From: an uncultured Planctomycetales bacterium | GTDB lineage: Bacteria; Omnitrophota; Gorgyraeia; Zapsychrales; Fredricksoniimonadaceae | Direction: 5' to 3' | NCBI GenBank assembly: GCA_964572155.1 | Contig: CAZNDZ010000001.1 | Span: 782,290 to 846,289 of the forward strand | DNA length: 64,000 nucleotides | Shown here: positions 5,638-19,508 of the stretch, piece by piece | Layout of the letters: each line of letters begins with the position of its first letter | Numbering within the stretch: position 1 is the stretch's first letter | Program-made: the position numbers and the translations under genes | The notes under the pieces: model-generated | What the model was told of the DNA's origin: nothing | Seen by the model: the letters and a program-made list of their open reading frames with translations, nothing else | Database searches by the model: none

Positions 5638-7095
5638 ATGTCGGAACATGAAAACGTAGCAGCACAACCACCAAAAGAACCTAAATTGGTTAGACCAACA
5701 AATGTGGTCAAGAATACAGGGCGTATTGCTGCTGTGCAGGGACCTGTTGTTGACGTACGTTTTCCCGTAGATGAAGAAGCACCTGCGGTATATGACTGTA
5801 TTGAATGTTTCTCGCTCGACGGTAAACGTATTGTTTTGCAAACATCAGAACATTTGGGGCCAGGTTTAGTGCGTTGCATTTCATTTATGGAAACCTTGAA
5901 CTTGCAATTGGGTTCTCCATGTACGAATATGAAAGAACCTACGGCTATTCCAATTGGTGATGGTTGCTTCGGACGTGTTATGGATGCGGCAGGTCGACCT
6001 TTGGATAATGCAGGCCCTTATGATTGTCCCGAGACGGTGCCTATCCGTAAACCTGTTCAGCAATTTAATTTTGACTTAAAGAAAAAAGGTCGTGAAATTC
6101 CTGAGCTGTTGGAAACAGGTATTAAATATATTGATTTGTTGTATCCGATGATCAAGGGTAGTAAGACAGGGGTTCTTGGGGGCGCAGGTTGTGGTAAGAC
6201 TGTCGTTATTTTGGAACTGATCAACAACATCGTTAAGGCTCACGGTGGTGCGTGTGTGTTTACAGGTATTGGTGAGCGCATCCGTGAAGGTAATGAGTTG
6301 TTTTACGAATTACATGAAGCGCATCTTTTGCCTAAGGTTATGTTGGCCTTCGGACAAATGGATCAACCACCAGGTGCCCGCGCTGAAGTTGTTAATGCTG
6401 GTTTAACCATGGCGGAATATTTGCTTGCGAAAAACAAAGACGTGTTGCTTTTCATGGATAATTTATACCGCTTCATCCAAGGTGGTCAGGAAGTATCGAC
6501 GTTGTTAGGTCGTGTTCCTGCAGAAACTGGTTATCAGCCAACCTTGGCATCTGAAGTTAATGCTGTTCAAGAACGTATCCGTTCGGTTGAAGGTGGTGGT
6601 TCGATCACGGCGATGCAGGCTGTTTATGTTCCTGCCGACGACATGACCGATCCCGCGGTCGTATCTATTTTCGCGACGCTAGACGGTGTTATTGTTCTTT
6701 CCCGTGATCTTGTTCAACGCGGTATGTATCCTGCGATTGATCCTTTGCAAAGCTCTTGTACCAACCTTGATACCAACGTTGTCGGTCGACGCCATTATGA
6801 AATGTCGCAACAGGTTATCCAGCATTTTAATAAGCACAATTCGTTAAAGCGTATCGTCGCTGTTATTGGTCTGGAAGAATTGAGTAAGGAAGATCAGAAA
6901 ATTTATAAGCGAGCAGAGAAATTATACAATTTTATGACACAGCCTTTTACCGTTAGCGAAGTCTTTACTGGTAAGAAGGGTGAGTATGTGAAATTGGAAG
7001 ATAATATCATTGGTTGTGAACGTATTTTACGCGGCGATTACGACCATATGGAAGCCCAAGACTTTTATATGATCGGTAAAGCTCCAAAGATATGA
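5638..7095 (+). CDS. atpD: F-type ATPase beta subunit
   Basis: Beta-type P-loop [18 protein letters not shown] (E. coli: GGAGVGKTV). [17 protein letters not shown] and [11 protein letters not shown] motifs. RBS TAGGAGA. Confidence 0.85.
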
Positions 7096-7096
7096 T

Positions 7097-16115: not shown

Positions 16116-19100
16116 ATGCAAGGGAAGTTCTTAAAATTACTCCTATGTTGTTGTTTACTGCCATTTCCTAGATTATTTGCAGGGGAGATTGTATTGCCTG
16201 CACCAGGGACAATGGTGCATTTAAGCCCTGCTGTAGAAATACCCATCTTAAAAGGCATTAAAGTTCACAGCGACGATCCTTTCCGTCTCGAATTCGTCTT
16301 AGACTCCGGAAACAATACATCCACCGATCTAAAGGAAGAATCTAATAAGCTGATTAAATATTTCCTAGCCAGCTTAACCACCCCCGATAAAGACATGTGG
16401 GTCAATCTAAGCCCATATGAAAAAGACCGCATCATCCCAGATCAATTCGGCCAAACTCAAATGGGGCGCGATCTATTGGCGCAAGATTATATCCTCAAAC
16501 AAATCACCGCGAGTTTGATTTATCCCGAGGACACAGTTGGTCGAGAATTTTGGCGACGCGTTTATCAATCTTCAGCAAATAAAAACATTCCCGTTAAGAC
16601 ATTTAACAAAGTATGGATCGTCCCTGATAAGGCTGTTGTCTATGAAAATGCTAAGGCAGGGGCTGCGTATGTTGTGGAATCATCCCTTAAGGTTTTAACA
16701 GAACAAGATTACCTCGCCAGTACCAAAAATAACAATGAATCAAATAACAATCAAATCATCAAAGACGTTGTGATCCCGCAATTAACCAAAGAAATCAACA
16801 CCGGCGCCAACTTTGCTCAGTTGCGACAAGTATACAATGCCTTAATTTTAGCGACGTGGTACAAAAAGAAGATTCAAGACAGTATTTTAAATAAGGTTTA
16901 TTCGGATAAGCATAAGATTCATGGAGCAACATATGAGGACACGTTAGATACTAAATTGATTTATGCGCGTTATTTGGAAGCATTTAAGAAAGGTGCGTAT
17001 AACTACATCAAAGAAGATACTGAAACGCTTGGCATTACAGGGCCAAGAAAGTATTTTTCTGGTGGATTTAATTTGGCGTTGAGTGGTGATGACAGCCTAA
17101 AGGTTACAACGGATGCGGCCATGGTATATCGACGTAGGGATCATTTAATGCAAGTGGATGTTAATCTTTCAGGCATTTCATCACCATCAAGAAACTTGTC
17201 AGGGAAGAAAGTTAAGTTTTCTGAATTTGTTGAATGGATGAATCAAGATTTTGATAATCCTCATGTGCTTTCTGACGCAGAAGTTTCCTCGTTAGCTGCA
17301 AGATTTAATATTCAACATCGAGATTTTGATCTATTGAAAAAAGAAGGAATGAATATTGCTAAGGGAAGTTATGCGTTTTATCAAGATTTACCAAAAGATG
17401 GAAAGTTAAATGTCTATTTATTCCGTGATGCATTTGGACTATACCTTGCGGATAAGATGTCTGGTGGAGATCCTTTAGCCATGATGGTTTCAAAAACCTC
17501 TGTTAGTTCATTAGGATTGGATGGATTAGACGTGGAGATGTCTGCCGTTGTTGATGAGATCAAAAGGAGGATGGGTTTAGCACTGGATGCTCCTATACCT
17601 GAAGAGCAATATGCTAGATTTAAGCAATTATTTTTTAAGTTTTGGGACAACTTATTTGAACATAAAAGCGTTGGAAAGATGTCGTCGGATGATGCGTTTG
17701 TTTTGAAGGATCAAGATAATCTCATCAATGCCATGCATCAGTTATCTGCATATGCCAATAGCATAGGGATAACCAGTCAATTGGTAAAGACGAGAGGGGT
17801 TAGATTTATTGATACTACGATGAGAGGGACCCTTGTTCTTTTTATGGAAGCTGTGGTGCATATGATGGCTAAAAGTGATGGTTTACAACAGGATCAGATT
17901 AAAACAGATAGTCGGATGTTTTATAGTCAATGGTCGCAAGCTTTAAGCGCACTAAAGTTATCTTCATCTGAAAAGATTGCGCGCATGACAGAATATTTTG
18001 ATTATCCTATTAGGTTTAGAGGATTTGATAAGAATTATACGCCACGCGTAGAATTTCGAGATCCTCACTTTATCAACAAGTTTATTTTTTTAACACGATT
18101 AATAAAAAGTGAACTCTTAAGATTAAATCAAGATCACGCTCAAATGTCACAAAGTTTGTCGATGGATGATATTTCAATAATACAGACGATGCCTTTGAGT
18201 GAGGCTGGCAAGCAATTGATTGTACGTAAGGCGCGGGGGTTGATGGGACAAATGCAAGCTAATAGAGCACTATACCAAAATGGTCAGCACGATATATGGC
18301 AGGATGTTCCATCTTTAATAATGAGTAATCCATATTCTGCTGTTTTTCGTCCAGAAAATAAAGAGGCAATTCATGTGTATGCAGAGGAATTAAAAAGATT
18401 ATGGCTAGAGAATGGATTTGATGAGGCTTATGGGGCGCTTACTGAGGTTATCGCAGCGTTTGAAGCAAACAAAGGCGCCCGTCCATCACAGCTCACATTG
18501 TTTCACCAAGTATTCCTGCAATTTCTAGAGAGTTTCGATGCGCAAGCGAAGGCGATGGGTTTAGCACAGTTAGTCGTTAATCATAGTTTGCATTTAAGGT
18601 TTAATGGATTGCATGATGAGGTGCATGATGTTAATTGGGGTTCAGTCTTTATTGATAATGAATTATTAATTGGTCATGATGATATACAGGGAGCGCTTCA
18701 GAGGTATTTACTATCATTAGTTGAGTTAAGCAAAGACAAAAACAGATGGGAATCTATTCTACCGGGTAAGGACGGAGCAGCGAATCATTTAGGGATTAGA
18801 TTAAAAGATCATTTGTTATGGGTGCTTGTTCTAGGAATAGATCCTAGTCTTCATGCATTTACAAATCAACCAAATGATGTCATAGATGAGGTGTTGAAGA
18901 AATATTGGGGCACTGATAATCGAGAACAGGTGATGCAATTGGCTGTAAAGAAGATATTTAGCGATCCATTATTAAAAGATCATCTGGAAGAGATTAATGT
19001 ATTAGTCAAAGAAGCGTTAACGATTTCTTCTCAAGAGTGGGAAAGCAAAGGTTTACGTTCACCATATCGTTTTGGTGTGGATTTTGGAAGTGCTGAATTA

Positions 19101-19508
19101 TTATTCAAATCGACAAGATTTGCAGATACATCAGCTTGGGAAAAGTATCCTTTAAAAGATAGGTTTTTGATGGTTGGTTTGCAACCTGAATTTCTGCCCA
19201 CGTATGAGATCTTTGAAGATAGAGGTCTTAAGGGGAGAGTTGATGTGTATTTGGCACAAGATAAGGGTAAAGATTTGAGACCTTTGTATGAAAGAATTTT
19301 AGAGAAACAGTTATCCCTGTCGCCAACAGGTGGGATTGATTTGAATGCGAGTAGAATGAATTTGGAGACGCAGCAGGTTGGGGAGGGGATTCGGTTTAGG
19401 TTGGATGAGGGGCAAATTGAGCGTTTGAAAGATATGGAAGGTTTGTCGCATGTGATTATTAAGATTGCACCTGTCACAGATCTGCAGCAGTTTTTAGGGA
19501 TTTTATAA
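16116..19508 (+). CDS. Giant exported protein, paralog 1 of 3 (1130 aa). Conserved N-terminal ~330-aa domain and conserved C-terminal ~60-aa 'GGIDLNA' domain.
   Basis: Signal peptide MQGKFLKLLLCCCLLPFPRLFAG. The N-domain is near-identical in long stretches to those at 38454 and 55642 (LPAPGTMV.LSP, LIKYFLASLT, WVNLSPYEKDRI, GRDLLAQDYLLKQITASL, FNKVWIVP, LRQVYNALILATWYK, AFKKGAYNYIKE, PRKYFSGG). C terminus PTGGIDLNASRMNLETQ...IKIAPVTDLQQFLG. Confidence 0.8.
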   Translation: MQGKFLKLLLCCCLLPFPRLFAGEIVLPAPGTMVHLSPAVEIPILKGIKVHSDDPFRLEFVLDSGNNTSTDLKEESNKLIKYFLASLTTPDKDMWVNLSPYEKDRIIPDQFGQTQMGRDLLAQDYILKQITASLIYPEDTVGREFWRRVYQSSANKNIPVKTFNKVWIVPDKAVVYENAKAGAAYVVESSLKVLTEQDYLASTKNNNESNNNQIIKDVVIPQLTKEINTGANFAQLRQVYNALILATWYKKKIQDSILNKVYSDKHKIHGATYEDTLDTKLIYARYLEAFKKGAYNYIKEDTETLGITGPRKYFSGGFNLALSGDDSLKVTTDAAMVYRRRDHLMQVDVNLSGISSPSRNLSGKKVKFSEFVEWMNQDFDNPHVLSDAEVSSLAARFNIQHRDFDLLKKEGMNIAKGSYAFYQDLPKDGKLNVYLFRDAFGLYLADKMSGGDPLAMMVSKTSVSSLGLDGLDVEMSAVVDEIKRRMGLALDAPIPEEQYARFKQLFFKFWDNLFEHKSVGKMSSDDAFVLKDQDNLINAMHQLSAYANSIGITSQLVKTRGVRFIDTTMRGTLVLFMEAVVHMMAKSDGLQQDQIKTDSRMFYSQWSQALSALKLSSSEKIARMTEYFDYPIRFRGFDKNYTPRVEFRDPHFINKFIFLTRLIKSELLRLNQDHAQMSQSLSMDDISIIQTMPLSEAGKQLIVRKARGLMGQMQANRALYQNGQHDIWQDVPSLIMSNPYSAVFRPENKEAIHVYAEELKRLWLENGFDEAYGALTEVIAAFEANKGARPSQLTLFHQVFLQFLESFDAQAKAMGLAQLVVNHSLHLRFNGLHDEVHDVNWGSVFIDNELLIGHDDIQGALQRYLLSLVELSKDKNRWESILPGKDGAANHLGIRLKDHLLWVLVLGIDPSLHAFTNQPNDVIDEVLKKYWGTDNREQVMQLAVKKIFSDPLLKDHLEEINVLVKEALTISSQEWESKGLRSPYRFGVDFGSAELLFKSTRFADTSAWEKYPLKDRFLMVGLQPEFLPTYEIFEDRGLKGRVDVYLAQDKGKDLRPLYERILEKQLSLSPTGGIDLNASRMNLETQQVGEGIRFRLDEGQIERLKDMEGLSHVIIKIAPVTDLQQFLGIL

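Follow-up and report, generated by a model that had tools for sequence, protein, structure and literature searches.

A conserved Omnitrophota locus joining a divergent F-type ATPase, with no subunit a detected in or near it, to a type II secretion-like pseudopilus gene set

Omnitrophota are known to carry gene clusters for "symbiotic", non-respiratory F-type ATPases within 10 kb of type-4a pilus (T4aP) clusters. Such loci were reported in every class of the phylum (Seymour et al. 2023, Nat Microbiol, PMC10066038), and the alpha subunit was placed outside the respiratory clade, together with the type 2/3 ATPases of mycoplasmas. Here, a locus of this kind was analyzed in a stretch of 64,000 nucleotides (nt) from an uncultured Omnitrophota bacterium (assembly GCA_964572155.1, contig CAZNDZ010000001.1, positions 782,290 to 846,289), referred to below as the window. 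Its genes for the F-type alpha and beta subunits form a set that ends 1 nt from a filament gene cluster, compared with the published limit of 10 kb. Co-location of ATPase and pilus genes is thus already known and the locus type is published, and the expectation of an earlier note on this sequence that such a pairing would be new was not borne out. The text and supplements of the published description, as far as they were available, make no mention of a missing subunit a, a second c-like subunit, a truncated epsilon, alpha, or delta subunit, a lysine finger, an upstream giant gene, a 434-amino-acid (434-aa) protein, or an internal TATAAT. In the accessible KO tables of the same article (PMC10066038), one genome (no. 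221) has alpha and beta only, without K02108, and another (no. 58) has a full F-type set, an observation that is anecdotal. The window locus is an instance of this phylum-wide "symbiotic" locus, and we propose, at a probability of roughly 0.65, that it encodes a dedicated, ATP-driven F-type motor that works with a pseudopilus machine and a giant surface protein.

Other reports describe the ATPases of these organisms and F1-like ATPases with a surface function. Williams et al. (2021) assigned a V-type ATP synthase to Omnitrophota of Ace Lake, including Zapsychrus exili, which we find also carries a beta subunit 70% identical to that of the window (P0108). A 2026 preprint (bioRxiv 10.64898/2026.06.07.730766) counted alpha and beta in 125 of 176 complete genomes and a recognisable gamma in only 30; the small number of recognisable gammas fits the divergent subunit set described below. 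The closest functional precedent comes from mycoplasmas, where a type-3 F1-like ATPase, whose alpha subunit has no N-terminal helix, is required for the function of the MIB-MIP system (Berlureau et al. 2026, PMC12994834). The G1-ATPase of M. mobile (type-2 F1-like; PDB 9io5) is a dimeric F1-like ATPase that forms chains inside the cell and is proposed to be the F1-derived motor that drives gliding (PMC11864180).

Conservation of the locus was examined by scanning with the window beta and keeping one genome per species, which gave 78 loci in which all 20 listed window proteins were located by tblastn and blastp. Because the scan recovers relatives of this beta, its result is that wherever this beta clade occurs, gspE follows. 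The closest named homologues of beta carry the label Omnitrophota or Omnitrophica, as do nearly all of the related loci. Beta was present in 74 Omnitrophota loci, 68 of which extend at least 800 nt beyond it and so have room for gspE. In all 68, gspE comes next after beta, at a distance of 100 nt or less in 57 of them, and beta identity in this set spans 96% to 47%. Upstream, the 434-aa protein, alpha, epsilon, c, b-delta, and gamma are found in every locus that offers at least 7 kb of sequence (36/36). The gsp genes are absent from three Clostridia loci used as controls (L073 to L075) and from L078. In the most divergent Omnitrophota loci (L062, L063, L066, and L069), the beta-gspE gap is about 480 nt and contains a small MshEN-like ORF (open reading frame), and the HExxH peptidase gene is found in most, not all, related loci.

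The conserved block extends from the giant surface-protein gene through the TPR gene. Beyond the TPR gene, neighbours vary by lineage and include minus-strand genes; some resemble UDP-GlcNAc 2-epimerases or membrane glycosyltransferases, judged from their translation, and the family of the 1130-aa protein that follows in the window appears there in a few loci. Given this variable flank, what is conserved is the block itself, and general collinearity does not account for it. The synteny comparison that the earlier note had called for was thus carried out and, with the atp and gsp blocks adjacent in 68/68 loci, speaks strongly for a conserved unit.

In the window, all genes of the block lie on the plus strand, and the atp-like and gsp identities given in the earlier note were confirmed with Pfam and NCBIfam. 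The F-type set comprises alpha, epsilon, c, b-delta, gamma, and beta, in the order alpha-epsilon-c-c'-b/delta-gamma-beta. The pilus/secretion set comprises GspE, GspF, a Peptidase_MA_2 (HExxH) protein, GspG, two minor pseudopilins, GspK, a PilM-PilN fusion (GspL-like), a PilO-like (GspM-like) protein, and a TPR protein. The atpD stop codon TGA occupies 7093-7095 and the gspE ATG begins at 7097, so that the junction reads AAG ATA TGA T ATG TTT. The 1-nt spacer and the other distances claimed earlier agree with the sequence and the ORF coordinates; between the 20 listed ORFs the gaps are, in order, 8, 4, 3, 12, 9, 19, 14, 10, 1, -53, -74, 20, -176, -4, 5, 69, 1, -8, and 32 nt, negative values being overlaps. 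Several true starts probably lie downstream of the start of the longest ORF (alpha, 1674; HExxH protein, 10033; one pseudopilin, 11278), and with these later ATG codons the apparent overlaps shrink.

Alpha (1659..3203) and beta (5638..7095) exceed the cut-offs of the canonical models, with 513.7 bits against 484.45 for atpA (TIGR00962) and 534.9 bits against 462.85 for atpD (TIGR01039), and in the PDB both match canonical F1 subunits best, with about 450 bits. The catalytic motifs of beta are intact as judged from the alignment: the P-loop, catalytic Glu, and Walker B are conserved across loci, and LFMDNLYRF is kept. Alpha departs from the canonical subunit in two respects. Its longest ORF starts at 1659 (TTG), but the probable start is the ATG at 1674, preceded by AAGGAG, and in the PDB alignment it begins at residue 22-30 of canonical alpha. 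The N-terminal helix is therefore missing, since an upstream stop codon leaves no space for an extension. At the arginine-finger motif, the window has GQKPALDLG where the canonical sequence is G-x-R-P-A-I-N-V-G. The finger position is taken by Lys in the window, as it is in about 40 of 51 Omnitrophota alphas; 11 loci retain Arg, among them L041, L043, L045, L052, L056, L067, and L072, and is also found in the Clostridia controls. A review describes this arginine as crucial for F1 catalysis, though the substitutions that it reports are to alanine, not lysine (PMC5380711).

Gamma, epsilon, c, and b-delta are recognisable, yet they score far below curated cut-offs. Gamma (4770..5627) is divergent, with 107 bits to Pfam ATP-synt (cut-off 39.9) and 82 bits to TIGR01146 (cut-off 194). 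Epsilon (3207..3512; 101 aa) consists of the N-terminal beta-sandwich only, matching ATP-synt_DE_N over residues 11-83 with 25.4 bits against a cut-off of 27; its length is close to 100 aa in all loci (median 100 aa), and the C-terminal helical hairpin domain is missing in all of them. The b-delta fusion (4003..4755) has an N-terminal transmembrane helix and a coiled coil, followed by the C-terminal part of OSCP/delta only (Pfam OSCP, 41.3 bits, profile positions 102-168 of 172). Among NCBIfam models it matches the N-ATPase b subunit TIGR03321 best, with a score of 46 bits that lies below the cut-off. The delta N-terminal domain that is missing here normally binds the alpha N-terminal helix, which is likewise missing.

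Two c-type proteins follow epsilon. Subunit c (3525..3746; Pfam ATP-synt_C, 27.7 bits, cut-off 24) carries a membrane glutamate (..LVFVEAIAV..) and is among the most conserved proteins of the block; the Glu is kept in 56 of 57 aligned sequences, all of them highly similar, and L062 has Gly in place of this ion-binding residue. The adjacent ORF 3756..3983 encodes a 75-aa protein with two transmembrane helices, c-prime, that aligns over its full length with the subunit c alignment (hhalign probability 97.8%, E 7.9e-13), which identifies it by sequence as a divergent paralogue of subunit c. In most loci c-prime has a Glu at the equivalent position; this residue is lost in the window, L002, and L003, and the gene itself is absent in L058, L062, and L066.

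Subunit a was not detected. No window protein matched ATP-synt_A (PF00119), and a profile and R-L-F-G-[NA] motif search of all 6,695 ORFs from the full set of loci matched only the Clostridia controls. Subunit a was thus not found within about 10 kb of the locus in any Omnitrophota locus. Between the 434-aa gene and gspE, no unassigned stretch is large enough to encode it. One other sampled region of the 1.34-Mb contig contained only housekeeping genes and no ATPase genes. Two further arrangements were seen among the related loci. L062 has a 521-aa membrane protein between epsilon and c (4859-6424) that, by eye, has a polytopic N-terminal region and C-terminal TPR-like repeats. L078, from a metagenome-assembled genome labelled Gammaproteobacteria with a beta 35% identical to that of the window, has another F-like cluster (897-6612) with no visible subunit a; in it, a 281-aa protein has a c-like hairpin (..GMSRNPLAAK..) at its end, and after it come b-like and delta-like proteins and then alpha, gamma, and beta.

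The pilus/secretion genes start with a GspE/PilB-type assembly ATPase (7097..8842; Pfam T2SSE 432 bits, MshEN 57.7 bits), for which PilB (560 bits) and GspE (555 bits) models are nearly tied, both below their cut-offs. A GspF/PilC platform protein follows (8790..10031; Pfam T2SSF twice, TIGR02120 328 bits, cut-off 424), and then the exported HExxH metallopeptidase (9958..10860; Peptidase_MA_2, 60.1 bits; probable start ATG 10033). The major pseudopilin (10881..11300) passes the GspG cut-off (TIGR01710, 146.5 against 88.85 bits; Pfam T2SSG, 113 bits) and scores only 29 bits with the PilA model. Two minor pseudopilins (11125..12269), the first probably starting at ATG 11278 and the second at 11679-12269 with a weak T2SSJ match, both have the N_methyl motif, and a GspK-like minor pseudopilin completes the series (12275..13297; Pfam T2SSK_1st 45.2 bits, cut-off 26.2; NF037980 80 bits, cut-off 130). 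In place of GspL and GspM are a PilM-PilN fusion (13367..14788; Pfam PilM_2 49.7 bits, PilN 43.5 bits) and a PilO-like protein (14790..15350; weak Pfam PilO match, 18.9 bits) whose position is kept across loci. The last conserved gene of the block encodes a TPR protein with a signal peptide (15343..16083; Pfam TPR families). Homologues of GspE, GspF, GspK, GspL, and GspM are thus present with scores below the equivalog cut-offs. No secretin (GspD, PilQ), GspC, PilT, prepilin peptidase, or V-type ATPase was found among the window proteins, and GspD, GspC, and prepilin peptidase were not evident in the related loci. On these profile scores, the set is best described as a type II secretion system (T2SS)-like member of the type IV filament superfamily. 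In L062 (11397-14024), a separate 151-aa ORF between beta and gspE resembles the GspE N-terminal (MshEN-type) domain, and GspE itself has a C-terminal extension in which PilZ-type motifs (RRQFER ... DVSAGG) can be read, a hint at control by cyclic di-GMP; a PilZ protein with Pfam support is also encoded in the window (28281-28661).

At the upstream end, the block begins with a giant protein and a smaller membrane protein. Of the two genes that the earlier note regarded as novel, the 434-aa gene is real, whereas ORF 36-341 is the tail of a giant ORF. An upstream extension read from Logan contig L001, which carries an identical beta, shows that ORF 36-341 belongs to a protein at least 788 aa long, which starts upstream of the window and has only its C-terminal end inside it (1..341). 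This protein consists of tandem repeats of roughly 14 aa (GINWxDxxxLSxx; L001 1-2367, continuing into window 1-341) and a conserved coiled-coil tail. In most related loci, the giant ORF exceeds 1,500 aa and runs off the 10-kb flank, and the tail is kept in nearly all. In L062, repeats that appear Ig-like by eye replace the body of the protein, and its position in the block is unchanged. The 434-aa protein (350..1654) has 133 homologues, the few with a source name being Omnitrophica. Its confident structural model (predicted local distance difference test [pLDDT] 83) has a signal peptide, a unit of beta-sandwich plus three-helix bundle that occurs twice, and a transmembrane helix at the C terminus; no specific structural relative of it was found.

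The transcription of the block was considered next. A consensus scan of the window found 47 promoter-like sites against 51.9 expected, which is no enrichment, and no terminator-like site in any intergenic gap, all matches being inside genes; neither signal occurred at the atp/gsp junction. TATAAT is present in 1 of 33 orthologous beta-gspE gaps, and no conserved promoter element exists there. These data agree with the earlier statement that no terminator or promoter-like gap separates atpD from gspE. The gap between gspK and pilMN (13298..13366; 69 nt, A+T 75%) differs: it is conserved, with a median of 64 nt, and a perfect TATAAT occurs in 30 of the 36 loci in which it measures 30-250 nt, against 4.1 expected from shuffles. 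In 24 of these loci, 21-27 nt lie between the end of the TATAAT and the pilMN start codon. The element is probably an additional, internal promoter that serves pilMN-pilO-TPR; we infer that the ATPase genes and gspE-gspK share a transcript. A single transcript over 36-19508, as first proposed, is doubtful because of this conserved TATAAT.

The locus was compared with known systems. It departs from the description of the Seymour-type locus in that the filament system there is called T4aP and the major pilin here passes the GspG cut-off, and in that alpha was grouped there with mycoplasma type 2/3 ATPases and scores higher here with canonical atpA. The divergence of the accessory subunits, together with the synteny, is nevertheless consistent with an alpha in the non-respiratory clade. 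Of the features of an F1Fo synthase, the locus has alpha and beta above the cut-offs and a subunit c with a membrane carboxylate, but not a neighbouring subunit a, a full epsilon, the delta N-terminal domain, or the alpha arginine finger. The mycoplasma type-3 system (PMC12994834) resembles it in having an F1-like set in an apparent operon with a surface system, an alpha with no N-terminal helix, and a protein comparable to the 434-aa protein, in which a signal peptide and two globular domains are combined with C-terminal transmembrane helices. Surface function there requires ATPase activity. The mycoplasma cluster has a 12-transmembrane-helix protein and no c, b, or delta, whereas c, c-prime, and b-delta are present here; and its partner is an antibody protease, not a pseudopilus. 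Membership in the mycoplasma type 2/3 families was rejected on scores of 401.7 against 600, 423.6 against 850, and, for the type-3 alpha and beta, 303 against 520 and 374 against 570, as well as on the presence of c, c-prime, and b-delta. In the gliding system of M. mobile, force is thought to reach giant surface leg proteins, and no pilus genes are involved, unlike here; beta matches the G1-ATPase with 343 bits, against about 450 for canonical F1 beta, and falls short of the NF045858 and NF045863 cut-offs.

Two further ATPase classes share features with the stalk. The FliI-FliJ-FliH complex of flagellar/type III systems places an F1-related ATPase within a secretion machine, and FliH, for which kinship with the b and delta stalk subunits has been reported, joins a b-like part to a delta-like one, as does the b-delta fusion here. 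FliI is a homohexamer with neither a c ring nor separate alpha and beta, however, and the window alpha and beta reach only 180-195 bits on FliI/SctN models. The N-ATPases (alternate F1Fo, atpDCQRBEFAG) have a long b with no separate delta and, as noted, supply the best NCBIfam match of b-delta; they differ in having subunit a, AtpQ, AtpR, and another gene order. Membership in this family was rejected, with alpha at 475 against 750.5, beta at 450 against 752, gamma far below its cut-off, and a different order. On the filament side, the likeness to a T2SS lies in the GspG that passes its equivalog cut-off and in the GspE, GspF, GspK, GspL-like, and GspM-like proteins, and the difference in the lack of GspD, GspC, and prepilin peptidase in the window; from a type IVa pilus the set differs in having no PilA-type major pilin, PilT, or PilQ in the window.

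How might such a locus function? In the reading favored here, the complex would not be the ATP synthase of the cell but an ATP-hydrolysing rotary motor, with an alpha3beta3 head, a gamma-epsilon shaft, a c/c-prime ring, and a b-delta stator. It would work with the pseudopilus platform, the 434-aa membrane protein, or the giant surface protein and may serve attachment, surface movement, or export on host cells, a role that by analogy would resemble that of the mycoplasma F1-like ATPases that serve gliding legs or MIB-MIP. A more specific version, which we regard as tentative and on the doubtful side, is that of an F-type rotor with no subunit a, in which ATP hydrolysis would turn the c/c-prime ring with no adjoining ion channel and torque would pass to the pseudopilus platform or, via the 434-aa protein, to the giant protein. 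Several observations weigh against the proposed motor. Conserved gene order shows linkage, not physical interaction. Hydrolysis is expected to be slower with a Lys at the finger position. Alpha and beta pass the canonical atpA/atpD equivalog cut-offs and score higher there than in the mycoplasma families. The conserved Glu of subunit c, finally, is a residue that an ion-translocating rotor needs, and a rotor of that kind normally depends on a subunit-a stator.

The last two of these points lead to the most serious competing explanation, that the genes encode an ordinary, ion-translocating F1Fo complex, with a subunit a encoded elsewhere or too divergent to be recognised, and that co-regulation or inheritance accounts for the operon adjacency, with no mechanical coupling. 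The near-invariant c Glu keeps this explanation alive; the scores of alpha and beta, their canonical best matches in the PDB, and the intact catalytic residues of beta are also as it predicts, and the search for subunit a covered the window and about 10 kb around the loci. Even so, subunit a is the sole core subunit missing, in about 70 loci and two gene orders, with c and b present; where atp operons are split, the genes for a, c, and b usually stay side by side. The loss of the epsilon regulatory domain, the alpha N-terminal helix, and the delta N-terminal domain, the predominance of Lys at the arginine finger, and the c subunit of L062 with no Glu all argue against an ordinary synthase, as do the published V-type annotation for these organisms and the position of alpha outside the respiratory clade in Seymour et al. 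(PMC10066038). Adjacency in 68/68 loci beside a variable flank also argues for more than inheritance, and we consider this explanation unlikely overall.

Alternatively, the F1-like part could be an export ATPase that, like FliI/FliJ/FliH, energises or gates the export of the giant protein or of pseudopilus substrates. The reported kinship of FliH with b and delta, which recalls the b-delta fusion, and the position of the ATPase genes between a giant exported protein and a secretion-type machine would fit such a role. The type III export ATPase complex has no c ring, however, and the locus retains both c and c-prime, highly conserved, as well as the alpha/beta heterohexamer organisation, which makes an export ATPase of this kind improbable. 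That the contiguity is only a by-product of a very compact, strand-biased genome, with no functional meaning, is a far weaker proposition still. The whole window is indeed compact, with nearly all of its genes on the plus strand, and the earlier note had cautioned for this reason that contiguity alone may say little. Yet the order is kept in all 68 species genomes, down to 47% beta identity, and the flank past the TPR gene differs between lineages; the contiguity is thus not a by-product of compaction, and this explanation is refuted by the synteny and retains almost no credibility. The dedicated motor remains the reading that we favor.

The 1130-aa exported protein that follows the TPR gene (16116..19508; no Pfam or NCBIfam match) had been counted as the last member of the unit, but it is a lineage-specific neighbour from a dispersed family. 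Among the related loci, it occurs after the TPR gene only in the closest relatives of the window (L002, L003, and L019), and L012 and L079 have a paralogue of it between beta and gspE. The family has more than 4,600 homologues, the few named sources being Omnitrophica, and is represented by three copies in the window (16116-19508, 38454-43613, and 55642-57852) and by at least eight on the same 1.34-Mb contig. In all three window copies, the N-terminal module, about 320 aa long and including a signal peptide, is highly conserved; AlphaFold2 gave no usable model of it (pLDDT 45.6). Copies one and two have in common a C-terminal module of about 60 aa (GGID...PGFVPVII.IQP). Both modules recur in the homologues, where they flank very different enzyme domains, and the variable middles contain methyltransferase, GNAT, HAD, GGDEF, glycosyltransferase, and kinase domains, among others. 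This layout suggests polymorphic cargo attached to a common module for targeting or anchoring.

Convergent with the 1130-aa gene, and overlapping its stop codon by 6 nt, is a gene on the minus strand (19503-21971) for an 822-aa homologue of STT3-type oligosaccharyltransferases, next to which lies a trypsin-like protease gene. A 1076-aa ORF at 30803-34033 has no Pfam match and is not a paralogue of the 1130-aa protein by BLAST. The rest of the window encodes housekeeping functions (purine synthesis, phosphoenolpyruvate carboxylase, KDO and Lpt genes, Clp, and trigger factor), and no tRNA or Rfam family was found in it.

F-type ATPases are nearly always energy converters, and the few known reuses are found in mycoplasma gliding, MIB-MIP, and the type III export ATPases. 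In Omnitrophota, which are ultra-small and probably host-dependent bacteria, an F-type set is paired with pilus/secretion genes in an arrangement that is widespread and strictly conserved, and this set keeps a c ring and a stator stalk with no channel subunit found in or near the locus. The locus type having been described before, what is of interest now is its mechanism and the fact that no subunit a could be detected in the locus or close to it. With the anatomy reported here, the "non-respiratory ATPase next to pili" can be approached through specific structural and genomic questions: whether subunit a is truly absent, why the Glu of c is kept, what anchors the b-delta stator, and what load the ring bears. 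If the reading of a rotor with no subunit a is true, the locus would give a diderm bacterium a machine for surface function, secretion, or motility that is driven by a rotary ATPase and differs from the F1-like X0 motors of mycoplasmas as well as from type III export ATPases.

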